In this document: piece after piece, positions 40,901 to 57,338 of the stretch
Numbering within the stretch: the stretch's first letter is position 1
How the letters are laid out: the number at the start of each line of letters is the position of its first letter
Origin: a virus
Taxonomy: Duplodnaviria; Caudoviricetes
Length of the DNA stretch: 57,433 nt
Virus record (IMG/VR): IMGVR_UViG_3300007512_000043
Location: 1-57,433 of that record
Reading direction: 5' to 3' (one strand)
Position numbers and translations under genes: made by a program
The notes under the pieces: generated by a model
Told to the model about the DNA's origin: nothing
What the model saw: only the letters and a program-made list of their open reading frames with translations
Database searches by the model: none

Positions 40901-42205
40901 TGGAGGGAACTCCAGACTGCCCCGAATGATGAGGCAAGGAGGAATGTAAAACTATTCAAACCAAAACAACTGGACCGGATGGCAGCGATCATTGTCATGA
41001 CAAACAACCATCCGACTCCAGCCAACCGCCCGTTATGGATGAAGACCAATGTGATGAACTCTGTCCTGTTCGCTCTCACTGGCTGGTCGTTCAACCAGTT
41101 GCAGAACTGGGCGAAGTCAATGCCGGGCACGGGGTATAAGACGCGAGGAGACAAGTCAGTGATGCAGGGGTTTGTCCAAAGGGCTCAAGCCTTTTTAGTA
41201 ATGGCCGCAGCTTTGGGCATAGCCATACCCGACAACTGGCTGCTTGAATACCTAGCCAGAATGGCAGACAGGCAGCTTTATGGGCGAAGAAGGGTTGCCC
41301 GTTTGCCAAATGAAATGCAGGGAACAAAGAACCAGATGTGGGCAACTGCCGGGCTGGCATTTCAGTCCGTGCCCCTCTTCGGAGGCACACTTGCCGCACT
41401 TGCACACGATCTTCCCGGCAGGCCGCAGCATCTTCCTGCCAATCTTCTGATGAGTCAGGTTGGGAATGCCATCCGGTGGGGAATGGAGATGAAGGAGGCT
41501 GGTTTATATCTCCCCGATACTAAGAACAGGGAGGTGGTTTTAGAATGGATGATTAATCAGTCAGTAAACGCAGCCAACCGGGCTCTGCCGATGACAAGGA
41601 TCATCACCTCCAGAATAAGTCCTCACCAGAAAGCCCTGCTGAAAACAATCAATGCAATAAGGGCCGTCAAGGCAAACTATGGTGACCCGAAGGCTACAAA
41701 GAGTACCGCAGGCTGGTCGGGGCAATACCAATACAGGCAGTCCAGCTTATGGAGCCCGTACAGGGAGCTCTGGGCGGCGGCTGTCGAGAGCGGTGACCTG
41801 AACGAGGCAAGCAGAATATTTGACGAGGCAATCCCGGTTTTCATTGCGGCGAAGAAGTACGCAACAGGGGACAAGGTTTGGGATTCGCCGGGTGCTTGGG
41901 ACAAAGCCAAGAGAAGTATGGAGCAGAGCTTAAAAACTATGAACCCGGTAAGGCGTTCGCTTAGGTCAGTTCCAACAAGGGATATGTTCTGGAGGAACTT
42001 AACTCACGTCAACAAAATTGATCGTAACTATATTGAGACGAGCATTCGAAACTGGGAAAATGCGTATGCGGAGTTCGGGTGGACAGGGCTATTCGCCAAT
42101 GAGCCTGTTAGGGAAAAGCCTCCAACGGTTCCACCCCCCTCGAAAAGAATCCCCAGCTACAGGCCTAAAAGTCAGGGTCCAAGGTCGAGGGTTCCGGGCG
42201 GCTAG
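28961..42205 (+). CDS. Giant internal virion / polyvalent protein (4414 aa)
   Basis: Single 13.2-kb ORF ending the late operon. Ala/Gly-rich N-terminus with 'GFEFTEEGADQ', acidic linkers, a zincin-like 'LLEEIAHF...PDEFYA' segment and a hydrophobic C-terminal region. Confidence 0.7.
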   Translation: MPQGTYPSLNYGGQRRRQSGPRPRVSGAYMPFTSYEDFDAYSKKLSEAQQAYKDYEDYLKSIEDERERERQRRRKIIEDPEYAKLYSERYRVGQENLKDTPSRVAAHLEQGIKSTGESLYKQYTEAYEASAYLLGADYERLKELREERKAAEQMMEEQKAERLKGIRGGSGSEFAYEAGQAAAQEAPFLAASAGTGRIVSGTVKKGLEKSAAKKAVAVEAALKEAPVSAAGRASAMEAQRVSAAERIAKLTEKTNRQASVATMGAIHGDRKFSSSSAANYDIMYPQVYSALEAQNRDGEFSPKELARMADEQTREIAIAPSLAAGAATTALVTTFGATGVESLFANTASRITARNAISTLGKGFGFEFTEEGADQFIEQVIQKHTLREDRPWEDIISETWHAATIGGVVGVKYSGIGLVARAPKEVDLRWRERQGRKALERIQSRDFFISYIKEQNPELSDEVVREKARELADGVADIKERARLRSSGATEEEIEDQSAINQLISEDQLDQLESEGVDVSDERTKNVELKVFYDRGVTAAQTNENAEDIIEEIERDYGAVAATKFAEGFNQTKATDELSEPEVGEEQAEPETVPAEEPTGPDIEAPVDVDVEEEKPEVPLEGEEKLEALAKEYWEAGEAESFKSARPIIKEFDELAEELGYDHMDRIVEEDSVLAEIFYKHAPEHQKPALEEAEKGAAPAPEPAPEPVAEPEPAPEPAPEPEPTEAEAETAEAPGTERTDLTGVKEGDIINLFDPRGRPVPREVTAINADSTTVTTKEPGNPDDPGSSISDEGIYSTISTKSEDFEIGTIEGSPPVSSLTDEELQHALGRQQEIIDSKKKHGQPYEWVARNYNAIKYEQRRRAEEPETEIGIESQLSESPSDEAFFGPPDLRQPGQPTPPAEEKPLPVNMIPYTESKYNSKTQTFDKVKGESEYVSLNGRFIKLVDVNGIKVPFYLSTGRAGKENVPEGKWYPIFGVSTATGWLNKGTQSQILDYYGSPALRDAAKKLDDEVGDIRAADVPRLASGMTKRKGKKGWSDPSTLEAIEFINNALGVTALKRDEALKKDDDGVKGIDKNIRTVLSAIEGESSPTESKGQVVFNALAAAGDLINPELVGRGTLEGEALSLGSMLEGRDETEPPPGFSYDRNFNLVPLKPGEKREPVRIEVKRENLKIPPNNLLIIGSHIKRTTGRGRGGVEYHKSIDGFLPSGHKAEEVLLPFRFAGENRPMAFIRYNKEGGKIQVGYFVRSAGPSPFRFKPTHTLKNSERYEYRTPNGTLKGFKIPTSLTTSKAIVNEKNWERLPSKYSGKLERAEAAATPDSHLIRRFIDHISSPVLKRQLNLMWNNGLDRWKNPQGSIDEGVIPPMLSLEGIAATILVANQFKKGTGSKRGKYARTLISTGKMEELANSFESAIKTLRNSDSYTKTVLNDKGTPKKTVNALLRRHDLLLRATKGLSPGQTQELISKWEEEQVKSTAEFDVKQFLNAMEMVAAINKTHKARELTLNDIIFVDKGQADEYFTGAVFTPDQRGQSRAYQVAIGKAPPRVKKIEDVTAEVVSDREVKTTTVDEDGALKDEGYARAYGIEITDSNRIPLSVLVKGLKELMPDIDFSTQELPDGTGRGTEKTEVERIKFDVDPTQKKKTGTSFMDVTGGKGGAKTTTARAKRAIPGRVIKRTQLNLTPLNPEALTEEKLLTVRAAIKFISKKASRIKDFQPSARWTAANKKKLKLERLKAKKDFNDKLKKFWNASEDELADLAKKEETQFFKDIARWLLQPNSKKGTTWAQFIKNNSTTDAVGGIKRGPDLTKAEKAYLSRGLTIKETKLLQEEGGSEADWAGMLTAGKIQSYASDQLAGVLKEGEEKPEATQGFLPLTTPDAGPPDIVTEEIHLVKDQLKDRVKKFRLDGRQFYIIDTTGKEDLGFWYTFNAKEATKEEFGGYGTGEDWVQLPMSEVKTELQAKNRILDQVNKSNDNLSVLGMAALIDSSLASKAQEIQQAVPIEKYEAGEAEYAYTRYSTAEHLTQEQLVTREIEPEHPDDAGVINKKLKAESEAVRLSREKAFKEMARLTPVDRRKMLKHTEAVSFKWQDKPQERIPMPEPSQKVHRQKEDDAGPRRIYEINNAGRLVNIPKSNLFNNAWRKRNGLKLVEFSDGKWWHVIGGPVVHTKMSGPRVTTAASEEVLDRMAATAPVTHGERMRQTRLNQPPPSSVVDPGRDFEGNTFTLTEEGGKKVQSILNTYTNTREFLEEMADRIADYGKGELAHQLTKFAEAGRPGQPSIHFKDRIKNPAGRDALKSWAKRVSPEKWQAVAHYAEEILLTANTGGRANRFRVRVEQAERIGPVIPTDLPWAQGKKQLKDLISRKDNGLTDEAREKALRIINEIDSELLDNLSLRIGARLNSNGDTEVDIVGEFNTLGNLITLAGDVSVDPDVLLEEIAHFTARVLPEKLRNEARGLHKAALDDAFKKSQATPVMAKHPRTEEKIIQVRRWAAKHVLVRKVLEKIRKGEDGQLTSDEYRAVLPRIGDLVSGTGKMSDTVSVDAEMLEDIVRETYHLANPDEFYANAMVTRVGDSTFDRARGFLKNILRAITRVFSGKSESEKVDDFVRRALKALANPDKRNKDMRGMLMRRNILAKGMRVLSRADRLRDAVLALNERAQAADDLGNTETAARRRDEVKRLVSQASAITNIFDKVIRRIAPDLSPNSKVWGMVNMRDIDFVNDLLEVFPSESEYRKVLEKFASDGRHELGQATALYAMHMIQEMERVARTLTERAEKRSKDVRGKNFLKSLTEFAKKVGDSAVTGKTKADLTSEIKDVISIAATEFAETGDIRGLLGGEFVRVASEDAIQAAQDKAGMIAANMEQIATILTETADGRELLNRDDISEEATEEESLSITGEQLETIAHDIYQIVDSVLAANQTPIDMMPDDEQIAWRVAAGLFAGNKKAREHATVSSFGEEDAEIYKRAVEEVAKLRDGLESGKLNSQSAFDSFSGDMDLLLEEGKLAYVARYAIRSPMRRIKDALDHRKAADLARAVMNDPEMLDYRRQVGIDAKVDDVPDLLGDTFYEQFVNGEVIIPVPPTDLVEEFDPDGRLKRGKEPNVRKFRFFTGKEEGAKENLLAAYEAAIDIQKWLDQELKKTTPVIDAETGLPMLDEKGDVIMDDAPLSPYWNFYWNTLQQLQAGFLHDAVWNAPDDMNQRGMFRNTYFGVLRHLVSGTPTRAMKIASRYVDKHEMYYVLFDSWKANFKAPWANKLLDAAKSRPGRFALDVGGIGLRWEELKAWAQVSKDAQVAKGVANWERTIGRHLRESWQEGGQEIGVGELLPNGEIVTKEDMALIDFEFKMANEAYEINELITDIDESVQPLRVNDQTVKTLRRRALKRGKKMLPRRFSTNGRSLVSRWNRLKDDLKGADLFDAVFRNGEEGFEAMVSFLNDRDPEWITAPTEDEEGRLKPRPGSPNEHLYSIVAQEIQQNGPEMEHTTNAVIKLLAEKGSRGADDVKVAIMNELEGSLTNLNRRINPPEKDAMLVQLNHSSGHSPMTDARQDKLGPSFFYTHGFNHEAEVQSFTSSLQLPVANGVINALRSASRDLNDFINKGGIKEAIDDAVEKLYGNKKNPNKYRYSNKVLKEVRKELGIDTGSKNNPEVDIFNTIVAIDSFTRDYEDVYGAGYKDFTVDLMPKLGRRVWSSIVGGILGNTMTAMRNVSETAIGATINVQSLTGGTGLQAAMAVITRGYLVHALKLGGSLAKSLLKLSVYPVGGFKQDKFVPLLPLRSAVTSGWWHQKYRKGLKQKLMGIKPDITMLIQGLFDPMIVELAQVMPRRINEHKILERQGLGMPITPTETMLNFGQLREMGGRIMDEVSAEETSSSNPVAALWNRGLYNLVGHWESYIALWFRPTLPRIGDLAANNIMASMGHYVGHNLERKARLAFGSRMKNKVALDEDITPQELVGNFLGLLEANRVTWNNVEEFLSQAGVTNFKDQVRKFWRELQTAPNDEARRNVKLFKPKQLDRMAAIIVMTNNHPTPANRPLWMKTNVMNSVLFALTGWSFNQLQNWAKSMPGTGYKTRGDKSVMQGFVQRAQAFLVMAAALGIAIPDNWLLEYLARMADRQLYGRRRVARLPNEMQGTKNQMWATAGLAFQSVPLFGGTLAALAHDLPGRPQHLPANLLMSQVGNAIRWGMEMKEAGLYLPDTKNREVVLEWMINQSVNAANRALPMTRIITSRISPHQKALLKTINAIRAVKANYGDPKATKSTAGWSGQYQYRQSSLWSPYRELWAAAVESGDLNEASRIFDEAIPVFIAAKKYATGDKVWDSPGAWDKAKRSMEQSLKTMNPVRRSLRSVPTRDMFWRNLTHVNKIDRNYIETSIRNWENAYAEFGWTGLFANEPVREKPPTVPPPSKRIPSYRPKSQGPRSRVPGG

Positions 42206-43094
42206 GCATTACAGACTTGGCTTGAATCAGCTTGCCTACTTCATCCACATCCGTGTCTAGGTAGCGTTGCAGCATACTGGTGGATGACCACCCTATTATC
42301 TCGACAATTGTTGTCACCTTTATCCCCGCCTTTATCATGTTGGTTGCTGCTCCGTGGCGAAGGCAGTGGAATGTCATGTGCGGCGGTAGCCCGGCTGCTT
42401 TAACTATCCGCTTGAACTCCTTGCTTAAGGAGTTGGAGGCATACCTTTGTGCCCCAAGGGGAAAGTAGAACTCTTGGTCGTCCTCAATGGGCAGGCCCTT
42501 GATAGCCTCCACCAGATCATGATGTAGCGGCAACTCGATCTCCCTCTCGCTCTGCTTTCTTGGCATGAACTTGAATGTCATCCTGTTCCAGTCAACGCAG
42601 TGAGCCCCAAACTTGGCACAGTCTTCTATCCTCATTCCGTAATGCCATCCCAACAGTATCATCGGAACCCAGTAATCACAGCCGTGGTCAGCATTGGCTG
42701 CCCCGATCAACGGGGCAATCTCCTCAGGCTCAAACCCCCTTACATGTTTCCCTTCTTTCGGGAACTTGCCGACTAGGAAGCAGGGGTTCCTGTCGAAATA
42801 ACCCATTACCAGTCCCCAGCTATAGAAGGACTTCAGCCTTTGGATATACACATTGATTGATCCCCCGGTTCGAACACGCTTTCCCTTAACAGGTGCCCTC
42901 AGGGTTGAAGCCCACCTGTTAACAGTATCGGGCTCAAGCGGGTCCAGCTTCCTGTCCAAACAAAACATGGCAAACTTTTCCAGTGTGCCTTGGAGCCCGA
43001 TAATCGTGTTGTCTTTACCTGTGACCTTCTTGAAGGCAAGAAATTCGTGAATCAATTGTGGCAGCGTTCTGCCTAGCTTTTTTTTCTTCTTCAT
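42165..43094 (-). CDS. int: Tyrosine recombinase / integrase
   Basis: Catalytic R (YGMRIED), HCLRH, IIGW and Y (LQRY); N-terminal SAM-like core-binding region. Confidence 0.92.
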   Translation of the reverse strand: MKKKKKLGRTLPQLIHEFLAFKKVTGKDNTIIGLQGTLEKFAMFCLDRKLDPLEPDTVNRWASTLRAPVKGKRVRTGGSINVYIQRLKSFYSWGLVMGYFDRNPCFLVGKFPKEGKHVRGFEPEEIAPLIGAANADHGCDYWVPMILLGWHYGMRIEDCAKFGAHCVDWNRMTFKFMPRKQSEREIELPLHHDLVEAIKGLPIEDDQEFYFPLGAQRYASNSLSKEFKRIVKAAGLPPHMTFHCLRHGAATNMIKAGIKVTTIVEIIGWSSTSMLQRYLDTDVDEVGKLIQAKSVMPSRPEPSTLDPDF

Positions 43095-46777: not shown

Positions 46778-47707
46778 TTACTTGCTCAACGCGACAGCGG
46801 TTGACAGGAAAACTTGAGGTTTATCCAGTATCGAGTCAGCATAGCTTTGACTAATGCTCTGCCATGTTTCGCCGTCCTTTATCTGGCCTCTCATAACAAG
46901 GAACTTGTGTATCAGTAGCTCCTTGCCTGAGAACAATTGACTTAACTTGTCCTTTGCCTCCTTTGTTAGAGCATCCTCAAGAGCTCCGTTTGATTCCGGC
47001 TTGGGCTCTGGCTTGGGCTCTGGTTTCTCACTTGCGGGAGGCGTGTCGGCTTCATCTGAAGAGAGCCAGTCCTTAATCATAGAGGCAAGTTCTTCACCCG
47101 GCCTAGCGAACACCATACCTGACAGCTCTGGACATCGGCTCTTCTCTATTGTGATGTTGTTCATTGTGTCCATCACGCCGAATAAGTCGAACTCGTAGTC
47201 GATACCGTCACGCTGCTGTGTGGCTAGGCCGATCTTTGCAACACTGACCTTCCCCTTGTCATCCTTCTCCTGTTCATACGCCTGCTTCATTCTCATTGTT
47301 GCAATGAGGTGGCCGGGGTGTGTCATCAGCGTATCCAGCAACAGATTGTGCAGTGGGGTTACCTTGCCCCAAGCGTTGAATGATTTGCCCTGCTTCCCAA
47401 CCAAGTCTAGCGCCCCATCTCTGCCCATCCAAGCGTGGCTTAAGCTGTCCACAATAAGGACATCGTAATCTGATGCTGCCTTGATTGCATCCACATAGCT
47501 TTGCGGGTGGTGTGTCTCCAACTGCGCCACATCAAAATCAAACTTGTTAGAGTAAATCTCTGCGCTTGATCTTTCTGTGTCCAATAGTGCCACACTCTTG
47601 CCGAGCTGATGTGCCAGCCTTAGTGCGGTGTATGTTTTGCCGCTGCCAGCAATACCGGCAATGGCCATCCTTAATTTCCTATTACTTCTTTGTGCTTTTT
47701 TATACAT
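46778..47707 (-). CDS. AAA_24 / Sak4-like ssDNA-annealing ATPase
   Basis: GIAGSGKTYTAL, LDTE, IVDSLSHAW, 'QRDGIDYEFD'. Confidence 0.85.
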   Translation of the reverse strand: MYKKAQRSNRKLRMAIAGIAGSGKTYTALRLAHQLGKSVALLDTERSSAEIYSNKFDFDVAQLETHHPQSYVDAIKAASDYDVLIVDSLSHAWMGRDGALDLVGKQGKSFNAWGKVTPLHNLLLDTLMTHPGHLIATMRMKQAYEQEKDDKGKVSVAKIGLATQQRDGIDYEFDLFGVMDTMNNITIEKSRCPELSGMVFARPGEELASMIKDWLSSDEADTPPASEKPEPKPEPKPESNGALEDALTKEAKDKLSQLFSGKELLIHKFLVMRGQIKDGETWQSISQSYADSILDKPQVFLSTAVALSK

Positions 47708-47858
47708 CTCTTGTAACGATTGCTTTGTTTTTTATTCCGATTCGGATGAATTGCGATGCGGCTGCACCGACCTTCATCCCTGTATTCTTACACCACTTCT
47801 TTAAAAGCAGGTGTGTCTTACCATCTATAGTTAGTGACTGTGTCTTTACATCCTTCAT
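47700..47858 (-). CDS. Small ribbon-helix-helix-like DNA-binding protein
   Basis: MKDVKTQSLTIDGKTHLLLKKWCKNTGMKV...; first gene after the predicted promoter. Confidence 0.55.
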   Translation of the reverse strand: MKDVKTQSLTIDGKTHLLLKKWCKNTGMKVGAAASQFIRIGIKNKAIVTRDV

Positions 47859-47874
47859 ATGTGAAGAAGGACAA

Positions 47875-47915
47875 AGGATGTCCCACCGCATCGGCTTGGT
47901 CAATATTATTATTCA
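47875..47915 (-). promoter_or_regulatory. Sigma70-like promoter for the replication operon
   Basis: TTGACC (47903-47898), 17 nt spacer, CATCCT; AT-rich upstream tract; lies just after the terminator. Confidence 0.5.
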
Positions 47916-47926
47916 TATTAATTAAC

Positions 47927-47956
47927 AAAAAATAGGGAGGCCCGAAGGCCTCCCTA
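47927..47956 (-). terminator. Rho-independent terminator ending the early/TIGR operon
   Basis: Minus strand TAGGGAGGCC-TTCG-GGCCTCCCTA-TTTTTT: 10-bp stem with a cUUCGg loop. Confidence 0.88.
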
Positions 47957-48053
47957 CCCAAGCAATGTGAGCAACACAACAAACAGAGGGAAATACTACG
48001 AAACCCCTGTCGCAGGCACACATTATCCAACCAGTAGGCACCTAGGCAAGCCC

Positions 48054-48431
48054 TTATTTGCTATTCTTTTTACTGAAGAACTTGTTCCTCAGTACGGCCA
48101 TCTTGACCGAATGTTCAGCGGTTCCTGTCCTAACCGCATTCGTCCTTAACCATTCCTCAGTCAGCCCCAGCTTCTTGAGTGATGCTGCGACATCCACCTT
48201 CTTGGCTCCTGTTGGCCTAATGCTGAAGACCAGCCTTGGGTCATCCCCGTTTGAGGCTGGCTCAACCTTGGGCCCCTTCTTCACAGGGGTCCTGTTCTTC
48301 TTCCTGAGCACAGGCTCAGGTTGCTGCTCTTGCAGTGAGGCAGACACAAGCCTTGCCTCTTTCATCGTCCCGACCAAGCCAATCAAATCGGCTAGGTCAT
48401 TGCCTCTAGCATGTATAATAACGGTATACAT
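48054..48431 (-). CDS. Hypothetical basic protein downstream of the array
   Basis: AGAAAGGAA RBS upstream; 125 aa. Confidence 0.65.
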   Translation of the reverse strand: MYTVIIHARGNDLADLIGLVGTMKEARLVSASLQEQQPEPVLRKKNRTPVKKGPKVEPASNGDDPRLVFSIRPTGAKKVDVAASLKKLGLTEEWLRTNAVRTGTAEHSVKMAVLRNKFFSKKNSK

Positions 48432-48470
48432 AAATATATTATTCCTTTCTGTATAATTGTTGTGATTAAA

Positions 48471-49367
48471 CTTAACGCTCTGCTGGATTGGTGCTCTCTC
48501 GTATTTTGACTCGTTCTGATTATATGGTACTCACATTATTGATGACTCGCTCACTCAGTATGGTTCTCTTATTTTTAGTGACTCGCTCTTGCAGTATGGT
48601 TCTCTCTTTCGAAGTGACTCGCTCTATCATATTGGTTCCACTCATGGACAGTGGCTCGTTCGTCGGATCTGGTTCTCACTTTTTTAATGACTCGTTCGGA
48701 ATGACTGGCTCTATCGGGTAATATGACTCGTTCGGGGTGCGGGGTTCTCTCAAATAGTATGACTCGTTCGGTTCTAATGGTTCTCTCCTATTCGTTGACT
48801 CGCTCCGTATCTCTGGTTCTCTCGATGTATGTGACTCGTTCGTTCATAGTGGCACACTGCTGCTGCATAACTCGTTCGGGGATGATGGTTCTGCTTATGA
48901 TCTTTGACTCGTTCTGCTCCAATTGATTCTCTCAGGTCACATGACTCGTTCTATTCATTTGGTTCTCTCCTTGGTACTTGACTCGTTCATTACCAGTGGT
49001 GCTGTTCTGTAGTAGTGACTCGTTCCAGTCTGATGGCTCTCTCGAATATGGTGACTCGTTCAACTTTCTTGGTTCTCTCAAGTTAAATGCCTCGTTCAGT
49101 AGGGGTGGTTCTCTCTTATACAATGACTCGTTCTCAGTCTTTGGTTCTCTCAGCCAAGATGACTCGTTCGCGTATACTGGTTCTCTCAGTAGGCATGACT
49201 CGTTCGACCAAGATGGTTCCCTCAACAACTTTGACTCGTTCTAGTTCTCTGGTTCTCTCGGAATGACTGACTCGTTCTGGACTAATGGTTCTCTCGAAAA
49301 CGATGACTCGCTTCTGCCTTCTGGTTCTCTCAAGACCTATGACTCGCTCGGCAATCAAGGTTCCCTC
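48471..49367 (-). repeat. TIGR-like (tandem interspaced guide RNA) dual-repeat array, ~24-25 units of 36 bp
   Basis: Plus-strand unit TGACTCGTTC-N8-TGGTTCTCTC-N8. 24 copies of the first repeat (48507...49340) and 25 of the second (48489...49358), with variable 8-mers between. Adjacent to a Nop/IS110-like gene. Confidence 0.88.
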
Positions 49368-50113
49368 TATTGGCCGGGCTTATTGTATTCCGCTATTATT
49401 TTTTCAGCATCCCAGCCTAGCTTTAGCTTGTCACTAACGTAGTCTGTTGGAATGCCGAATGCGTCAGCGAAGTCTTTCTGCGATATGTAGATAGTCTTCG
49501 TCGAGTGTCTGACTACGGGCTCCTTGTTGTCGTCGCCTGTCGGAATGTTGGGAACATATGTGTAACCCTGCTCCACCACCAGCCTATCAACCTCCACATA
49601 GTTTGGCGGGACATCGAACCCAAAGGATTGTTCAAGGGTCCAGCCCTTGTTCTTCCTCGCTATTATCGTTTGGTACTTTGCGAACAGCGGGAACGGGTAG
49701 GCCCCGTCCTCAATCTGTCGCATAAGTTCCCTAACTGAACCCCCTTCCAGCACCTCGCCTCCGTTAGGAAGCCTCAGCCTCAGGTTCTCTTCAACCACCG
49801 GAGTGACATGATCGAGACACTTGTCAGGGGTAATGTCGTTGCCGGGTATCAGATCGAACAGGCTTACAACCTCATGCTTATCAATAGCAAAGAACTCCCG
49901 CTTGTCGCTGACCCTCTTGCTTGCCAGTGCCGAGTGTATCTTAGACTCAATGAAGTTGGCATCATCAACCTCCTTTGCGTAGATACATTCGAAGGGGGAA
50001 GGTACGTTCGTGTCAAACAACTGCTTCATCCTCCTCTCCAAGTTGCCGGTTTGCCCTATCTTCACAACGCACGGCATTGATGCGTTCGTAACTGCGTATA
50101 TTATACCGTTCAT
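49367..50113 (-). CDS. GIY-YIG superfamily nuclease (T5orf172/Mug113 domain) with C-terminal repeated HTH-like motifs
   Basis: 'GIIYAVTN..MP.VVKIGQT.NLERRMKQL....VPSPF...IESKIH..L...RV...REFF'; C-terminal 'KGWTLEQ' and 'FGIP...KLKLGWDAE'; GAGGAG RBS. Confidence 0.85.
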   Translation of the reverse strand: MNGIIYAVTNASMPCVVKIGQTGNLERRMKQLFDTNVPSPFECIYAKEVDDANFIESKIHSALASKRVSDKREFFAIDKHEVVSLFDLIPGNDITPDKCLDHVTPVVEENLRLRLPNGGEVLEGGSVRELMRQIEDGAYPFPLFAKYQTIIARKNKGWTLEQSFGFDVPPNYVEVDRLVVEQGYTYVPNIPTGDDNKEPVVRHSTKTIYISQKDFADAFGIPTDYVSDKLKLGWDAEKIIAEYNKPGQ

Positions 50114-50122
50114 TTTATCTCC

Positions 50123-50200
50123 TCAGTCGTCTGTCAGTACCAAGTAATAGAAATACAAGGTCATTACCAATGATGCGAATGCCAGTATCATGAGAATCAT
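50123..50200 (-). CDS. 25-aa single-TM peptide (not in ORF track)
   Basis: MILMILAFASLVMTLYFYYLVLTDD. ATGA overlap with the tas stop codon; its own stop overlaps the RBS of the next gene. Confidence 0.5.
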   Translation of the reverse strand: MILMILAFASLVMTLYFYYLVLTDD

Positions 50201-50991
50201 GCCGCCTTTATATGGTGCACATGGCCCATATGCGCTATGGGATAAGGCAACGGCGGGTCTGTCTTGTAGTGCTCACGGTATGCCGTCTCATGCCAGTGCG
50301 CCAAGAACAGCTTGACCGCATATCGCTTGGCTCTGGCGTGAATGTGGCCCGGCGGCAGCTTGCCAACCGAGTAGTGCTTGTATGCCTCGGTGTTCTTTCC
50401 GACCCGCTTGGCACCCTCATCTGCCTGAGACTTGTACATGAGTACGCTGTTGTTTGCAGTCTCAAGCACCTTGCGTTGTTCATAGTACTGACCATAGATG
50501 TCCTTGTCCCTTGACTTAACCTTCACGAATGACTCACCTATCTTCCAGCACAGTGTCTTTAGGCTGGCGTTCCAAGGGCGCTTCTGTCCCTTGCCCCACT
50601 TGCACGTTGGGTCCTGACCTGCGTACCTCCAGATGTGTCCGACAGTAGGGGCCTTGGTGATGTCGATATGAGCAAGAAGGCCAGCCGCAATCACAGGGCC
50701 GATCCCGCATATACCCATAGACCACTGCCCCACTGGGTCAGCCTTCGCATACCTGTTCAGCGACCTCTTGATGTTGTGCTCAAGGTCTTCGTTGACTTCA
50801 CCAACCCACTCAAGCAATGAGCTTGGCTCGTTTGTGCCTGCCAAGCTTCTCACCTGTGCTGCTGCCCTTATTCTGCTATCTTGTATCTGATAGTATGTGT
50901 CCACTAGGAACCTAGCTTCATCTGATGAGAGCCTTGAGCTCGCATCAAGCAGGTCCTTGTCCAGTTTTATTCTCTCTCTTCCTTCGCTCAT
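50197..50991 (-). CDS. tasA: TIGR-associated Nop-domain protein (TasA-like; IS110 C-terminal-like fold, no RuvC/HNH)
   Basis: Helical N-terminus ('LVDTYYQIQDSRIRAAAQVR'), 'GICGIGPVIAAGLLAHID', 'IWRYAG', 'PWNASLKTLCWKIGESFVK', 'YYEQRK', 'HIHARAKRYAVKLFLAHW'. No DEDD RuvC domain; adjacent to a 36-bp dual-repeat array. Confidence 0.82.
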   Translation of the reverse strand: MSEGRERIKLDKDLLDASSRLSSDEARFLVDTYYQIQDSRIRAAAQVRSLAGTNEPSSLLEWVGEVNEDLEHNIKRSLNRYAKADPVGQWSMGICGIGPVIAAGLLAHIDITKAPTVGHIWRYAGQDPTCKWGKGQKRPWNASLKTLCWKIGESFVKVKSRDKDIYGQYYEQRKVLETANNSVLMYKSQADEGAKRVGKNTEAYKHYSVGKLPPGHIHARAKRYAVKLFLAHWHETAYREHYKTDPPLPYPIAHMGHVHHIKAA

Positions 50992-51230
50992 TTGTTTCCC
51001 TTTCTGTTTGTTTCGCTAACGGGAGTTATTCCCGTTACATATGTCCTTAGTTTTTCGGCGGGGTCATGATCCCACTTCTGGGCCACACCTTCGCCGTAGT
51101 TTTCATTGCAGTCCATTGATGTGCCAATAACCCTGTTGTTGACAATCTCCACTGCCCGTGACTTGTTCTTTGCATCCACCTCAAAGTAGTGGGTGCTCTT
51201 TCTTCTTACTGTTACTAGGTATTTTTTCAT
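50988..51230 (-). CDS. Hypothetical protein
   Basis: 80 aa, coupled to both neighbours by overlaps. Confidence 0.6.
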   Translation of the reverse strand: MKKYLVTVRRKSTHYFEVDAKNKSRAVEIVNNRVIGTSMDCNENYGEGVAQKWDHDPAEKLRTYVTGITPVSETNRKGNK

Positions 51231-51454
51231 AGCTCTCCATCTGCGAGTAGCTCGCCATTGGTGATCTCGTTTTGTCCTCCCTTCGCAATCCGCATGACAG
51301 TGAACATGTCCCTGCCGTTGGTGTGTACCAACTCAACGCGAATTGCGCCGCTGTGACTTGCCGCCTCAGTAACAAGGCCCGTGCTCTTGTGCCCTCTCGC
51401 CGTTGCCTGTGTCTTGCGTGCGCTTACTGGTATAGTACCGTAGAAGTGTGACAT
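51227..51454 (-). CDS. Hypothetical phage protein
   Basis: MSHFYGTI...ATARGHKSTG; GAAAGGAA RBS. Confidence 0.65.
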   Translation of the reverse strand: MSHFYGTIPVSARKTQATARGHKSTGLVTEAASHSGAIRVELVHTNGRDMFTVMRIAKGGQNEITNGELLADGEL

Positions 51455-51456
51455 TA

Positions 51457-51606
51457 TTATCTTCCTTTCCTTAAGTCTCCGTAATTAAACTTCGTTCTGT
51501 TCTGGTCAAGCCCTCGCTTCTTGAGGAACTTTGCATAACCCTTGTCGACTTCTTTCCTCAGTCCCGCAAACGTATCCTCTGGTAGGGAGTCTGCCACCTG
51601 AGCCAT
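51457..51606 (-). CDS. Possible 49-aa protein (not in ORF track)
   Basis: MAQVADSLPEDTFAGLRKEVDKGYAKFLKKRGL... fills the gap between genes. Confidence 0.35.
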   Translation of the reverse strand: MAQVADSLPEDTFAGLRKEVDKGYAKFLKKRGLDQNRTKFNYGDLRKGR

Positions 51607-51636
51607 CTTTTTCCCGTCATGTTTCTCACTCATGTG

Positions 51637-52032
51637 TTATTTTATGCTTCCTCCTGACGCCCAGTCAGGGTTGTGATCAAGCTGCAACTTTATCCACGCT
51701 GTGGTGTACAGCTCCTTGTACTTCTCTCTCATCTTGTCAGTCCATCCATTGTCATCCCTTCGCCAGTCAAACTGTGGCCGCTTATCAACCACAGCAGGGA
51801 AGTGTTCGTTGACTATCCTCTGTGCCCTGCTTGGGCTACATCGGATGTGCTTGTCATACTTAACCAGTCGGTGGATATCTGGATTACCACTGAACTCGCC
51901 AGTCAGTATCGCCAACTCAATTGTTGACTCCCATATTTGCAGTGGGTCACCGCAGACCTGACAGTCCACGGGGTACCACTCTTTCACTTTCTCATCCTTG
52001 CCTGTGTCTAGGTTTAGCTGTATCTCACTCAT
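51637..52032 (-). CDS. Hypothetical protein with CxxC
   Basis: CQVC and HIRC suggest a zinc site; ATGA overlap. Confidence 0.6.
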   Translation of the reverse strand: MSEIQLNLDTGKDEKVKEWYPVDCQVCGDPLQIWESTIELAILTGEFSGNPDIHRLVKYDKHIRCSPSRAQRIVNEHFPAVVDKRPQFDWRRDDNGWTDKMREKYKELYTTAWIKLQLDHNPDWASGGSIK

Positions 52033-52265
52033 ATAATTCCTAACTCCTCCTTGTGTTTCTCTGTGTAACCATAGTCATCCTCATCTAAGGAGTACCACCT
52101 TTGGTATGCTGTCTCCATATTGAATTTGAAATCACACAATGTTGTATCATCTGACAACGCCCAATGCTTGCCTAGGTATTCTCCTATTGCCTCGGCTATT
52201 ATCTTTAAGCGAAGGGGGTCAGCCTTTATCGACAGGTGGTGTTCGCTTACATTTATCTCACTCAT
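52029..52265 (-). CDS. Hypothetical protein
   Basis: GAAAGGAA RBS before ATG 52265 (MSEINV). Confidence 0.55.
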   Translation of the reverse strand: MSEINVSEHHLSIKADPLRLKIIAEAIGEYLGKHWALSDDTTLCDFKFNMETAYQRWYSLDEDDYGYTEKHKEELGII

Positions 52266-52387
52266 TGTCTTTCCTTTCCAGTGGCCACTTGCCGTCGAAC
52301 TCAAACGATCCCAACTCCTTGTACCTCCCTCGGCTTAACTGCTTGAGGTAGGTCACGGTGCCGGGGGCACCAGACAGGCAGTCCATA

Positions 52388-52675
52388 TCACGAATTGACA
52401 TGATCGCCATTCTCCTTGTCCCCCTGTAGTGGGTGTCCAGCCTGACATGTGTCGTGTGCTTTGGTGTCCTCATTGAACTTGAACTCTTCTCCTTTATACT
52501 CATTGATTTGTTCCTTGTTATTCTGTCCCATTATCTGCTCAACTATTTGAGCAACTGTGTATACCCAATACGGGTGCCCACCTTTCTCCCCCTCAACCAG
52601 CCAACGCTGTAGCCTCTCGTCGAGGAGGCTGTCACGCTGGCGTGGTGTAAGGAGAATGGTGTACTCATTTGGCAT
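52388..52675 (-). CDS. Hypothetical protein
   Basis: ORF overlapping the upstream gene end; start uncertain. Confidence 0.4.
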   Translation of the reverse strand: MPNEYTILLTPRQRDSLLDERLQRWLVEGEKGGHPYWVYTVAQIVEQIMGQNNKEQINEYKGEEFKFNEDTKAHDTCQAGHPLQGDKENGDHVNS

Positions 52676-53477
52676 TGCTTCCGAACTGTGAGACATAGCT
52701 GATGAGCTTTAGGAAGTCATCCCTGTTCAACGATATGTTGTCCAGTGAGTTTTTCTCCTGTTCATCTCGGCTTACCTGCATGCAGATTTCACCAAGTTTT
52801 TCAGAAGTGTATTCAAGTGAAACAGTTTCACCGTATGACCTCTTGAACTTAGGTTTACCCAAGATTGAATCTATCTTGGATATGTATTTCTTTACCCCAT
52901 CAGCCTTGCTCAGGTAGTCCTTAGCCCAGAAACTGCTTGCCCGATAGAGGGTGTCGTATGTTTCCCAAGTCTTCTCAATCTTCTTACTGGCTATCGTTAC
53001 GTCAGTAAGGGGAGACTTCTTGTTTGGGTTGCCCACGTTGCGCCATACCTTGCCTTCAAGGTCACGCCTTTCAGAGTAATCCCATCTATCCACTATCCGG
53101 CTAAACAGGGAGGATTGTTTCTCACTCCACATGCTGCCGTTTGGTGCATAGTCAGTCGGGTCGAAGCCGGGCGTAATAAAATGCTCCCGCTCGTCAACGT
53201 CCACATAAGCAGGCCACTTATACCTCAACTCAAACGAGTTGAATGCCGGTGTGTAGCAGGCATCGACCTGTCTTCCTATCGCAAACTCACCCTCATCCTT
53301 GAAGGTAAACCTTGCACCATAGGTTGCCCCGTCGAACAACTCGGGCTTAATGCCCTCAACTGGTAGCCCTCGGATATCCAGAAGCTGACCGATGCTTTCG
53401 GCAATGAGCTTGGACGCTGCAAGTTTTGCATCATCCTTTGCGTTTGCCCCCACCATATTTAATGATATATCGTTCAT
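52665..53477 (-). CDS. Hypothetical protein
   Basis: 270 aa; AGAAAGGAACCA leader motif. Confidence 0.7.
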   Translation of the reverse strand: MNDISLNMVGANAKDDAKLAASKLIAESIGQLLDIRGLPVEGIKPELFDGATYGARFTFKDEGEFAIGRQVDACYTPAFNSFELRYKWPAYVDVDEREHFITPGFDPTDYAPNGSMWSEKQSSLFSRIVDRWDYSERRDLEGKVWRNVGNPNKKSPLTDVTIASKKIEKTWETYDTLYRASSFWAKDYLSKADGVKKYISKIDSILGKPKFKRSYGETVSLEYTSEKLGEICMQVSRDEQEKNSLDNISLNRDDFLKLISYVSQFGSNAK

Positions 53478-53495: not shown

Positions 53496-55028
53496 TTATT
53501 CAACGATTACCGGAATGTAACCGTAAGTTCTTTGTGGTAGTACAATGGAATCACAGGCATTCACGCCAACGAAGATGGTTGGCACGCCTGACTCGGTCAT
53601 GCTGTCATAACAGAACCCCATATCTGTCACGAATATAGCCCAGTCGTAGTCGTGCTTCTTATCCCTCAACCAGTCTATCGCTGGCTGCATGTCCGTGCCT
53701 CCGCGCCCCAGCCACTCACGGGGTACCGTAAGAGGCAGGTCGTTGTAGTTGTATTCACGAATGCCACGCTCATGTATTGTGGCATCGCACTGCACCATTG
53801 TGATCTCTGCCTTCGGCCATTCCTCCAGAACCTTGCTGATCTGGACGATAGCCTCGTCGCATTCACGGTGACCCATACTCCCGCTGGTGTCTGTGATTAC
53901 CGCACCCTTGGTCTTACCCTTGGTGCGATTGGACGGGAAGATAACATCGCCCATCGTGCGCCTGCGGTGTGGCCGCTTGTGATTGCGCCCACCCAAGCAT
54001 GACTTGTGGATGTACTCACGGAGCTTTGACCAGTTATTCGCAGCCTTCTTGGCAATGGAATTTTCTATGTAATCAATCCCATACCCTGCGCCCCTGCCTT
54101 GCTGCTTCATGAGCACCACTGCCTGAGTTGCTGTCTCTTCGTACTCGGCCTCGGCATGATCCATCCCCTCCTCTTCAATGACGGGACTGTCATCAACCTC
54201 GCCAACCACAGTGCTGTCTCCGGTTATCTCTTCAAACTTTTCAGTAAGAGACTTGCCGCTGCTCGCTGTACCCCCGCTGGATGTGGCATCTCCACTGCCA
54301 CCAGCATTGCTGTCGCCGTCAGTATCGCTGTCACCATCACTGCCGTCGCCGTCGCCGTCGCCGTCGCCCCCGTCGTCAGGCTTCTTGTCGCCGTCGCCCC
54401 CGCTGGTGGTGCTGGACTCTTCATCGTCAGGCTCGCACCCTTCGCCATTCTCTCCGCCATCTCCGCCTTCACCATCCTCGCACGGCTCGGTGATGCCTCC
54501 GTGTGGAGGCTCAGGAAGATCGGCAATGTCCTTCTCAAGCTCACGGTAATACCATTCAGCCGACTTTAGGTGAGGGAACTTTGCCCAATCACCTTCTCTT
54601 GGCATGAGTATCTTGACCTTGTTGATCAGCTCGTCCCAAACGTCCAGCTTGATGATGTAATCCCTGAGCAGTGAGTTGATAGCCAAGTCACCGGCCACAT
54701 TGTAGCCCTTGTGATTTCGGTCACCCCTTCTGACGTGGTGCCCCAGCAGCAGGTGCATTGCCTCATGCAACACCACCCACTTGACGGCATCCGTGCTCAG
54801 CTTATCCACAAACTTGGGATTATACTTGAGCACTCGTCCATTGGTACACATGGTCGGGACGCCGTGATCCATAACAACCTTCCACTTGGCAATCCACGGG
54901 ACGCCAATTGGATGGAAGTCGAAGATGTAATCATGACCCAGATCAACCTTCAACTTCGCTCTCTTCATTATGTCATCCAACAAGCTGTCGGCTGACTTCA
55001 TCGCTTCTTTTAATTTAGTATTGCTCAT
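53496..55028 (-). CDS. DUF2201-type metallopeptidase + vWA domain protein
   Basis: 'TMCTNG...YNPKFV', HEAMH (HExxH), 'NVAGDLAIN', D/G-rich linker, MIDAS DTSGS, 'GRGGTD', 'VTD'; start re-assigned to 55028. Confidence 0.85.
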   Translation of the reverse strand: MSNTKLKEAMKSADSLLDDIMKRAKLKVDLGHDYIFDFHPIGVPWIAKWKVVMDHGVPTMCTNGRVLKYNPKFVDKLSTDAVKWVVLHEAMHLLLGHHVRRGDRNHKGYNVAGDLAINSLLRDYIIKLDVWDELINKVKILMPREGDWAKFPHLKSAEWYYRELEKDIADLPEPPHGGITEPCEDGEGGDGGENGEGCEPDDEESSTTSGGDGDKKPDDGGDGDGDGDGSDGDSDTDGDSNAGGSGDATSSGGTASSGKSLTEKFEEITGDSTVVGEVDDSPVIEEEGMDHAEAEYEETATQAVVLMKQQGRGAGYGIDYIENSIAKKAANNWSKLREYIHKSCLGGRNHKRPHRRRTMGDVIFPSNRTKGKTKGAVITDTSGSMGHRECDEAIVQISKVLEEWPKAEITMVQCDATIHERGIREYNYNDLPLTVPREWLGRGGTDMQPAIDWLRDKKHDYDWAIFVTDMGFCYDSMTESGVPTIFVGVNACDSIVLPQRTYGYIPVIVE

Positions 55029-55062
55029 ACTGTATGGTTCCTTTCTGATTACTGGCAAGTAA

Positions 55063-56118: not shown

Positions 56119-57246
56119 TTACAGGTTCTTCGCCTGTAAATCCTTGTAGGCTTGGTGCGAGGCCACCGTCATCCTGTCTTTCGCCATTCGAAAGAAGTTC
56201 GCTTGGTATTCCTCGGGCCACCGACCTGCGTAATCGCAGAAAGCCCTTGTCTTCGCACGGTCTTCAATGAACATGCCCTTCTCATCCTGAGGGGCAGCAT
56301 CTTGTACCATTGAGATACTGGTTGCGTAGTACAACCCCGGCTCCTTCGGGAGCTTGCAACCCTTCGGGTCTTTGAAGATTTCCCCGGGCTGTGGACACTC
56401 ACTCATTCGTGTGCGGAACTCCTTCATTGAGTTGCCCACGTTGCGCCCAACTGTTCCGAAGATACATGCTTCAACCACCTTTGGATTGGTGCTCCACTTG
56501 GTGCCAATCTCATAGCATGACTCGATGAGTTTGGATGCCCAAGTAAATGTCCTTGAGTTGCACCTTGCGTGCTCGGCATAGGACACTGGCTCCCCGAACA
56601 CCTCGTCCTTCTGGTACTTGGCAAAAGCCTGAGCCCAAGCAGGGACGTTGTTATTCTGAGCCCATTGAACATACCCATCAACGGCTTCCTCACTCTGATG
56701 CGCCACATACAGATGCGTCAGCCTTGTGGACAACGCTTCCGTAAACGGTGTGGTTCCGATGTCACTCTCACCGTTACCGGCGGCAATGACCCTGACACAA
56801 TCGTAGAGGCGTGCACCATTACACATCCTGTCGAGGATGAGTTGCAGTGCCACGTTCAACACCTCTTGCATCGAACGATCCAGCTCATCAAGAAACATCA
56901 GACACTTGTCAGTCCATTCCCCTTTGAGGTTCTTCCAACGCGGTTTGATCAGCTTGCCCTTATCGTCAAACTTCTCAAACGGTATCACATTGGATGACTG
57001 GAGCCACTCAACGCACTTGTTCACCCTGTCTGCGACAGGCAGTCCAGCCAGATCGGGCGGCTCTTTGTCCGAACAACGAACATCGAACAACGCCCAGCCC
57101 AGCATCTCGGCAATCTGCCTGACGATACTGGATTTTGCACAACCCGGTGGACCCCACAACATGACGGGCTGGTTGACATTAACACAGACCATCAGTGCTG
57201 ACTTGATTGTGGCTATCGGATAGGTAACAGCTTCACAGCTATTCAT
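56119..57246 (-). CDS. MoxR-like AAA+ ATPase
   Basis: 'PVMLWGPPGCAKS', 'FLDELDR', 'IAAGN', 'ALSTRL'; start re-assigned to 57246. Confidence 0.88.
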   Translation of the reverse strand: MNSCEAVTYPIATIKSALMVCVNVNQPVMLWGPPGCAKSSIVRQIAEMLGWALFDVRCSDKEPPDLAGLPVADRVNKCVEWLQSSNVIPFEKFDDKGKLIKPRWKNLKGEWTDKCLMFLDELDRSMQEVLNVALQLILDRMCNGARLYDCVRVIAAGNGESDIGTTPFTEALSTRLTHLYVAHQSEEAVDGYVQWAQNNNVPAWAQAFAKYQKDEVFGEPVSYAEHARCNSRTFTWASKLIESCYEIGTKWSTNPKVVEACIFGTVGRNVGNSMKEFRTRMSECPQPGEIFKDPKGCKLPKEPGLYYATSISMVQDAAPQDEKGMFIEDRAKTRAFCDYAGRWPEEYQANFFRMAKDRMTVASHQAYKDLQAKNL

Positions 57247-57338
57247 TCTATTATGGTTCCTTTCTTTTTTTGTTATGGTTGTACCAGCCAATGGCTGGCA
57301 GGCTCGGTCACCTGACCGCTCCCCTCAAACATCAGAAG

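Follow-up and report, generated by a model that had tools for sequence, protein, structure and literature searches.

We analyzed a 57,433-base linear viral record (IMGVR_UViG_3300007512_000043; hereafter the window, estimated to be 81% complete) and found that a locus on its minus strand is very probably a dual-repeat TIGR-TasA system of a marine, probably temperate, tailed phage, as judged from protein homology, structure prediction and the design of its guide array. A sequence-only reading of the window had called the locus TIGR-Tas-like. That identification held up: the protein had Tas homology, a predicted Nop fold of the Tas type, no nuclease domain and a conserved dyad, and the array had two repeats and a truncated edge repeat at its 3' end. 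Two features carry the assignment:

50197..50991, minus strand: tasA, encoding a 264-amino-acid (aa) Nop-domain protein with a coiled-coil hairpin and Nop domain and without a nuclease domain (PDB search, AlphaFold2, Foldseek, Pfam)
48476..49381, minus strand: TIGR array with a 5'-truncated degenerate edge repeat, 25 loop repeats, 24 full edge repeats and a 3'-truncated edge repeat

Architecture of the array

Dual-repeat TIGR arrays are described as two alternating 8-12-nucleotide (nt) repeats with short spacers and a 3'-truncated terminal edge repeat (Faure et al. 2025, PMC12045711). We parsed the array register by register on the minus strand, from 49381 to 48476. Loop-type repeats with the consensus GAGAGAACCA (n = 25, exact in 11) alternated with edge-type repeats with the consensus GAACGAGTCA (24 full copies, exact in 15), and both types begin with GA and finish with CA. 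Four of the loop repeats were degenerate (AACAGCACCA, AGCAGAACCA, CAGTGTGCCA and AGTGGAACCA). The array opened with a degenerate truncated edge, AAGCCC (49381-49376), ahead of the first loop repeat, and closed with a truncated edge repeat, GAGCG (48480-48476). By the rule that arrays end in a 3'-truncated edge repeat (PMC12045711), we assigned GAACGAGTCA as the edge and GAGAGAACCA as the loop.

In total the array contained 24 full tigRNA units and one leader-proximal unit. Tandem Repeats Finder reported period-36 rows across 48523-49367, and with the parse this bore out the earlier count of about 24-25 units at a 36-bp period. Nineteen of the 24 full units were 36 nt long (10 + 8 + 10 + 8, with spacers of 8 and 8 nt) and the other five were 37 nt long, with one 9-nt spacer. 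The sequence-only reading had described the unit as repeat-N8-repeat-N8 with nearly all N8 different; the diversity stood, with 47 of the 48 spacers in the window array distinct.

Both repeats were concentrated in the array. At no more than one mismatch, GAACGAGTCA had 28 matches in the window, 23 of them inside the minus-strand array, against a shuffle expectation of 3.07 (standard deviation, sd, 1.61), and 0/100 shuffles reached 28. For GAGAGAACCA there were 24 window matches, 18 inside the array, against an expectation of 4.68, with 0/100 shuffles reaching 24. Column information in the window array was 1.1-2.0 bit in the repeats and 0-0.4 bit in the spacers, and it was 0-0.1 bit in the spacer columns of 359 distinct guides from arrays sharing the window's repeats. 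Each of the six reading frames contained 9-18 stop codons. The array is non-coding and has the TIGR dual-repeat architecture; stop codons in every frame, units of 37 nt and near-random spacer columns disposed of a conserved protein-coding repeat, which the sequence-only reading had named as one of the outcomes that would undo it. An Rfam scan of 47800-51400 matched no family.

The TasA protein

All four motifs that the sequence-only reading had quoted as IS110-C-terminal or Nop-type (GIGPVIAAGLL, WRYAG, WNASLK and HARAKR) were present in the translation of 50197-50991 on the minus strand. Searched against PDB sequences with phmmer, the 264-aa protein matched 9mty_A (TasR, E 1.3e-15) and 21kl_A (TasH, E 5.5e-14) along with seven further TasH entries, and all matches other than TasR and TasH had E > 0.5. 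The alignments entered TasR at residue 142 and TasH at residue 126, beyond the nuclease domains of both. Pfam reported only Transposase_20, at 18.5 bits and thus under its 21.3-bit cut-off, and its scan found no HNH, RuvC or DEDD domain, which agrees with the earlier statement that the protein has neither RuvC nor HNH. Since the homology starts after the TasR and TasH nuclease domains and no nuclease domain was found, the protein is, on its sequence and predicted model, the solo-Nop form of Tas, TasA.

Structure prediction pointed the same way. The AlphaFold2 model, built with 32 homologues as input, had a predicted local distance difference test score (pLDDT) of 86.9 and a predicted template modelling score (pTM) of 0.83, and contained a long helical hairpin (helices 23-51 and 58-83). 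In a Foldseek comparison with the PDB the ten best listed chains were all TasH or TasR, at probability 1.00 and query-normalised template modelling (TM) scores of 0.53-0.64, so that the Nop fold proposed from the sequence was recovered in the predicted structure. IS110-family recombinases were the next matches after the Tas chains (E 0.017-0.2).

Residues Y250 and H257 aligned with Y289 and H296 of SpTasH at an identical 7-residue spacing; among the 32 aligned homologues H257 was invariant and Y250 was at least 90% conserved. The SpTasH pair is described as catalytic in the maturation of pre-tigRNA (PMC13421893), and the Tyr/His residues are reported as conserved in dual-repeat clades, with stem-loop clades lacking the dyad (Xu et al., bioRxiv 10.64898/2026.09.09.750476). 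The TasA family is large: of 7478 candidates, 7109 had E <= 0.001, and IMG/VR contains 439 relatives. Both PHROGs and public annotations label the protein 'transposase'.

Proposed mode of action

By homology with SpTasH, TaTasR, FpTasA and MbTasA, a TasA dimer would bind the precursor RNA at the conserved ends of each repeat. TasA may then cut within each edge repeat through its C-terminal Tyr250/His257 dyad, which would release 24-25 tigRNAs of 36-37 nt, each composed of a half-edge, spacer A (8 nt), the loop repeat, spacer B (8 nt) and a second half-edge. Because TasA has no nuclease domain, it is predicted to bind and bend DNA and to block transcription or replication without cleaving the target.

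Relatives and turnover of the guide sets

Of the 439 relatives in the viral collection, 13 and then 80 loci were examined. Arrays of the same design were present in 60 loci, the window included, with 1077 units in total. In 47 of the 59 related arrays the array lay at most 100 nt from the tasA match, and the largest distance was 647 nt. Seven close relatives had their first loop repeat 11-24 nt past the stop codon, after a truncated edge and one spacer. Edge/loop pairs in relatives included GAGCGAGCCA/GAGAGAACCA, GATCGAGACA/GAGAGAACCA, GATTGAAACA/GATAGTAACA (locus L011) and GTGCGAGCCA/GTGAGAACCA, and in a qualitative comparison the repeat ends co-varied between edge and loop across loci.

Guide sets turned over much faster than tasA. 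Four pairs of loci illustrate this, with units counted as shared at 12 or more of 16:

L003 and L005: tasA DNA identity 94.0%; at most 1 unit shared, of 12 and 13
L004 and L008: tasA DNA identity 95.5%; about 5 units shared, of 17 and 24
L006 and L007: tasA DNA identity 97.7%; most units shared, with whole-unit insertions and deletions at interior positions, not at one end
Window and L002: tasA DNA identity 77.6%; 2 of 24 units shared

Near-identical spacer pairs (14-15 of 16) flanked a loop repeat in 91 cases and an edge repeat in 43. This excess agrees with units being inherited as edge-to-edge cassettes, which appear to be the unit of inheritance, and it backs the assignment of edge and loop.

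Individual units gave further observations. L006 unit 13 and L007 unit 16 occupy matching positions and share two unusual repeat variants, GAGTGAGTCA and GAGAGTGCCA, but differ in their spacers, with 8/16 bases identical; it looks as if the spacers had been replaced in place. Window unit 14 (48877-48832), in which the loop repeat is the degenerate CAGTGTGCCA and the edge variant ends in TTA, is identical to L002 5294-5339 in spacers and loop repeat, although the two tasA genes are only 77.6% identical. Spacer B of unit 14 and both of its repeat variants recur in L006, L007 and L012.

Target searches

Targets were sought in both pairing geometries with gaps of 0-2. Run against the window in four geometries, the 24 window guides reached 2 mismatches at best, equal to the same-strand control geometries. 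We then obtained full sequences for five related phages, including two with 100% complete genomes (40 and 18 guides). Across all six phages, 173 guides gave 0 perfect matches to their own genomes in either geometry, with a distribution equal to that of a mispaired control. Cross-targeting among relatives was searched with 232 guides over 164 kb and with 1078 guides over 305 kb, and yielded nothing above control. The paired spacers, which the sequence-only reading had taken for a guide library that might silence competitor phages, mobile elements or host genes, led to no target in the window or the phage genomes in either register at a 0-2 nt gap. Because the guides match their own and their relatives' genomes no better than control, we infer that the targets lie outside the phage's own genome, in the host chromosome or in a rival mobile element.

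These results bear directly on a self-directed role, in which the guides would act on the phage's own DNA, for the timing of late genes or for integration through DNA bending, with targets that carry several mismatches or fall in the 19% of the genome missing from the record. Gene regulation and assistance to integrases are among the possibilities raised by Faure et al. (PMC12045711), the window encodes a tyrosine integrase at 42165-43094, and it is only 81% complete. Yet no guide beat the mispaired controls on its own genome in any of the six phages, including the two that are 100% complete, and guide sets that are almost wholly different between phages with 94-96% identical tasA DNA are hard to reconcile with conserved self-targets. 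We consider a self-directed role very unlikely.

A lead on coding targets

One idea about targets outside the phage is that the guides are directed against protein-coding genes, either in rival phages or in the host, and that arrays of different lineages track the same conserved protein motifs through synonymous change. We think it unlikely to be right. Guide families span arrays of phages whose TasA differs by 27-30% from that of the window, and when some of these families are read as spacer A plus the reverse complement of spacer B, variation among their members is limited to every third base and the peptide stays the same. Window unit 5, like three guides of other phages, encodes P-T-A-Y, and 3/4 also encode V-Y-A-V-G on the opposite strand; peptides of further families were E-I-D-A, T-S-P-G and Y-T-D-I-Y. 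Guide pairs with 3-5 differences in a single phase numbered 11 against 2.6 expected, with 5/11 from one family, so that just a few families account for the enrichment. The family-level test was null: 6 families were coherent where about 3.5 were expected, and other geometries scored alike. Global three-base periodicity across 50 guide families was not significant (best z = 1.1, p = 0.17).

Unit 5 (49205-49170), again as spacer A plus the reverse complement of spacer B, had one perfect 16/16 match in the viral collection (G006:C1:13043-13058). The match lies in frame, as V-Y-A-V-G, in an open reading frame (ORF) of ~795 aa on a 15.7-kb viral contig. That ORF matched no PHROG or Pfam family, 11 relatives of it had no guide matches, and no other window guide matched the same contig. 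A sister guide of the unit 5 family had its sole exact 16-mer match in the viral collection in unrelated DNA. The unit 5 match is indistinguishable from chance, and synonymous tracking is a lead, not a finding. If true, it would supply the first natural TIGR targets and fix the pairing geometry in vivo.

Proposed operon layout and the inserted T5orf172 gene

Four further minus-strand features accompany the two components of the system:

50123..50200, minus strand: 25-aa hydrophobic mini-ORF MILMILAFASLVMTLYFYYLVLTDD, read from the sequence; its ATG and the stop codon of tasA overlap as ATGA
49367..50113, minus strand: T5orf172/MUG113 (GIY-YIG-clan) gene, 248 aa; its stop codon overlaps the first repeat
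48054..48431, minus strand: 125-aa ORF without a family match, directly 3' of the array and co-oriented with it
47930..47959, minus strand: terminator-like hairpin with a 13-bp stem (7 G-C pairs) followed by a T run

The sequence-only reading had placed the array 0.8 kb downstream of tasA in the same orientation. Both points were confirmed, but the 0.83-kb gap is filled by two ORFs that it had missed, the 25-aa mini-ORF and the 248-aa T5orf172 gene. The mini-ORF has a counterpart, MILMILALSSLAVTVFMFYIILTDE, at the same place in L002, with conservative changes, and is absent from the other relatives examined. The 125-aa ORF had no Pfam, PHROG or PADLOC match; copies of it stand 3' of the array in L002 (74% identical) and L035 (39% identical). 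An 80-aa ORF upstream of tasA matched no Pfam, PADLOC or significant PHROG family. The hairpin at 47959-47930 was the sole minus-strand terminator-like site within 47600-52800 and is the probable end of the transcription unit as predicted from the sequence. From their orientation and spacing, tasA, the mini-ORF, the T5orf172 gene, the array and the 125-aa ORF would form one minus-strand transcript.

The 248-aa protein matched T5orf172 (E 1.9e-16) and MUG113 (E 1.2e-13) in Pfam, both over residues 3-87, and the PADLOC candidate defence family PDC-S57 over residues 2-98 (E 2.9e-34), with no match for its C-terminal half in Pfam, PHROGs or PADLOC. Its family was small: 18 of 320 candidates at E <= 0.001, one of them 94% identical and the rest at most 57%. 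A pattern search found no close relatives of the protein in the viral collection, and the G+C content of the gene was unremarkable.

Among the tasA loci examined, the gene occurred in the window alone. No T5orf172 homologue occurred near tasA in 13/13 and 85/85 related loci (together 86 distinct contigs). L002, the closest syntenic relative, with a tasA 77.6% identical in DNA and the same neighbours on both sides, has an empty site, in which the same flanks stand without the T5orf172 gene. The insertion point is the stretch that separates the stop codon of tasA from the first truncated edge repeat. In L006 (4807-5111) and L012 (428-732) this tasA-array junction holds an insert of ~300 nt with a different ORF of ~90 aa, and in the sister phage L007 (4807-4831) it is just 24 nt long, with no insert. 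The window and L002 carry other inserts there. Because unrelated small ORFs have been inserted there in L006 and L012, the junction looks like a general, permissive insertion site. The T5orf172 gene is most likely a lineage-specific insertion, an independent mobile or conflict gene and not a part of the system.

A functional tie is conceivable, in which the T5orf172 protein would be recruited to TasA-tigRNA complexes as a nuclease in trans and would cut the bound DNA, making the pair a split functional analogue of TasH or TasR. The gene does sit inside the proposed operon, co-oriented and with its stop codon overlapping the first repeat, its domain belongs to a nuclease clan and has the PDC-S57 match, and no paper in the library searched combines TIGR, Tas and T5orf172. 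The distribution of the gene speaks against such a partnership: the 86 related contigs lack it near tasA, the site in L002 is intact and empty, other unrelated ORFs use the same junction, and the whole protein family numbers only 18 homologues among the candidates. We regard a nuclease in trans as highly improbable and retain the reading of an independent insertion.

A separate observation concerns a published annotation. In supplementary file 3 of PMC12045711, one Tas ORF is labelled 'T5orf172 domain-containing protein' by JGI. The N-terminus of that ORF is a periodic ERAK...ES sequence that resembles an upstream array translated in frame with tasA.

Recurrence in metagenomes, phage and host

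Contigs from four marine metagenome runs, belonging to four studies, aligned to 47900-51300, each piece with 0-1 differences. Run X3 gave depth in all 30 bins of this interval, in seven pieces. The tasA/T5orf172 junction was bridged in 4/4 runs and the T5orf172/array junction in 3/4. Because contigs of these runs span the array and the insert junctions, the layout cannot be put down to misassembly and is not a rare variant.

In the search for a host, the window was found to contain no tRNA genes. The cultured-phage collection gave no DNA match and only two relatives, Salicola phage CGphi29 and Microcystis phage Mvi-JY20, both at <30% protein identity. A single distant relative, at 52% identity, came from the genome collection, on a 5.8-kb contig in a metagenome-assembled genome of Eubacterium sp.

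Two observations concern genes elsewhere in the window. After the structural genes comes a single 4414-aa ORF (28961-42205, plus strand) that matched no family in Pfam or PHROGs. In the gene region 53496-55058 (minus strand) and 56119-57291 (minus strand), a 520-aa protein has the PHROG label 'HNH endonuclease'. In Pfam the same protein matched the DUF2201 putative metallopeptidase domain and a VWA-like domain, and the second gene upstream of it encodes an ATPase; the label from PHROGs seems misleading.

Comparison with known systems

Among the closest described systems is SpTIGR-TasH of Salicola phage CGphi29 (NC_020844; PDB 9W03, 21KL and others). Like the window array, its array has a 36-nt unit of 10 + 8 + 10 + 8, lies downstream of its tas gene and closes with a truncated edge repeat. 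Its edge repeat AAGCGAGCCA differs from GAACGAGTCA at 3/10 positions and its loop repeat AAGACAACCA from GAGAGAACCA at 2/10. SpTasH and the window TasA (28.5% identity over 161 residues) share the Nop fold, as predicted for TasA, and the Tyr/His processing dyad at aligned positions. SpTasH, however, has an N-terminal HNH nuclease and cuts DNA, whereas the window TasA starts past that domain. The SpTIGR array also stands among head genes with a terminator directly after it, whereas the window array is followed first by the 125-aa ORF.

By description, the window locus resembles the solo Nop-domain Tas proteins with arrays in Flavonifractor plautii (FpTasA), a Minisyncoccota bacterium (MbTasA) and PlTasA. 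FpTasA binds 36-nt RNAs (PMC12045711), and MbTasA represses transcription by binding its target DNA, which it does not cut (Xu et al., bioRxiv 10.64898/2026.09.09.750476). PlTasA uses stem-loop arrays (Guan et al., 10.64898/2026.08.11.744272), whereas the window locus is dual-repeat with the Y/H dyad. TaTasR (PDB 9MTY), the best sequence match among solved structures, shares the coiled-coil and Nop architecture but has an N-terminal RuvC domain, 9-nt spacers and UG...CCA repeat ends, against no RuvC, 8-nt spacers and GA...CA in the window. Type IV and type V-M CRISPR, the nuclease-free systems on mobile elements, are alike in their proposed RNA-guided, non-cutting interference (Faure et al., PMC12045711); their proteins are unrelated, and they have single long spacers with a protospacer adjacent motif (PAM) and another array architecture. 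IS110-family recombinases (IS621, ISCro4) have a related RNA-binding domain and gave the next-best fold matches, besides the weak Transposase_20 match. They differ from the window locus, which has no DEDD domain, no transposon flanks and many short guides in place of a single bridge RNA.

It is extremely unlikely that the locus holds no guide array at all: a protein-coding 12-codon repeat, suggested by a period that is a multiple of 3, fails on the 9-18 stop codons per frame, the five 37-nt units and the essentially random spacer columns, and an IS110-type transposon remnant with a bridge RNA, suggested by the 'transposase' labels of PHROGs and public annotations and by Transposase_20, fails on the missing DEDD/RuvC transposase domain, the sub-threshold score (18.5 < 21.3 bits) and the 24-25 units in place of one bridge RNA, while a CRISPR array fails on two alternating 10-nt repeats with 8-nt spacers in place of one 25-36-nt repeat. 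An IS110-family transposase and CRISPR-Cas were accordingly rejected as identities, the latter also because none of the 12 neighbouring proteins matched a PADLOC Cas model.

The clade has been catalogued before. The supplementary table of Faure et al. (PMC12045711) contains a protein closely similar to the window TasA, from the metagenome of L002, and a 40-residue stretch of the window TasA had no match in the searched part of that table. Among 20,096 tas loci, 6,685 arrays have been reported (Xu et al. 2026, bioRxiv 10.64898/2026.09.09.750476).

Points weighing against the assignment

Several observations count against a working TIGR-TasA system at this locus. Within the array, the four degenerate loop repeats and the five 37-nt units mean that some units may be non-functional. 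In TasA, the C-terminal loop 251-259, which contains H257, was modelled at pLDDT <50, so the Tyr/His dyad is supported by alignment and not by the model. The array stands 0.83 kb from tasA behind an inserted gene, unlike the arrays of most relatives, and since that gene separates the two, we infer co-transcription instead of reading it from the layout directly. Promoter-like sites were not above shuffles (7 against 4.6, sd 2.2), and no RNA run was among the listed data sets containing window DNA. No target was found for any of the 24 guides, the DNA-binding function proposed for the locus is drawn by analogy with described TasA proteins, and a self-target could lie in the part missing from the 81% complete window. 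Against these points stand the Tas homology, the predicted fold and the array architecture, and we keep the assignment to a dual-repeat TIGR-TasA system at the strength given at the outset.

Significance

Systems of this kind were published in 2025, and both the design of their guides and repression by TasA have already been described; the known picture of TIGR-Tas is unchanged by these results. Our analysis adds the inserted T5orf172 gene, the absence of self-targets, complete genomes included, and the pace and mode of array turnover. The window offers a well-preserved example of TIGR-TasA with 24-25 guides, in a phage found again with hardly a change in the marine metagenomes of four studies. 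Its repeats belong to the same class as those of the biochemically characterised Salicola phage system, minus the nuclease, so the two loci lend themselves to comparing an effector that cuts with one that does not, on guide scaffolds that are nearly the same. The related arrays gathered here bear on two questions raised in the literature: the targets of the guides and the way in which arrays change.

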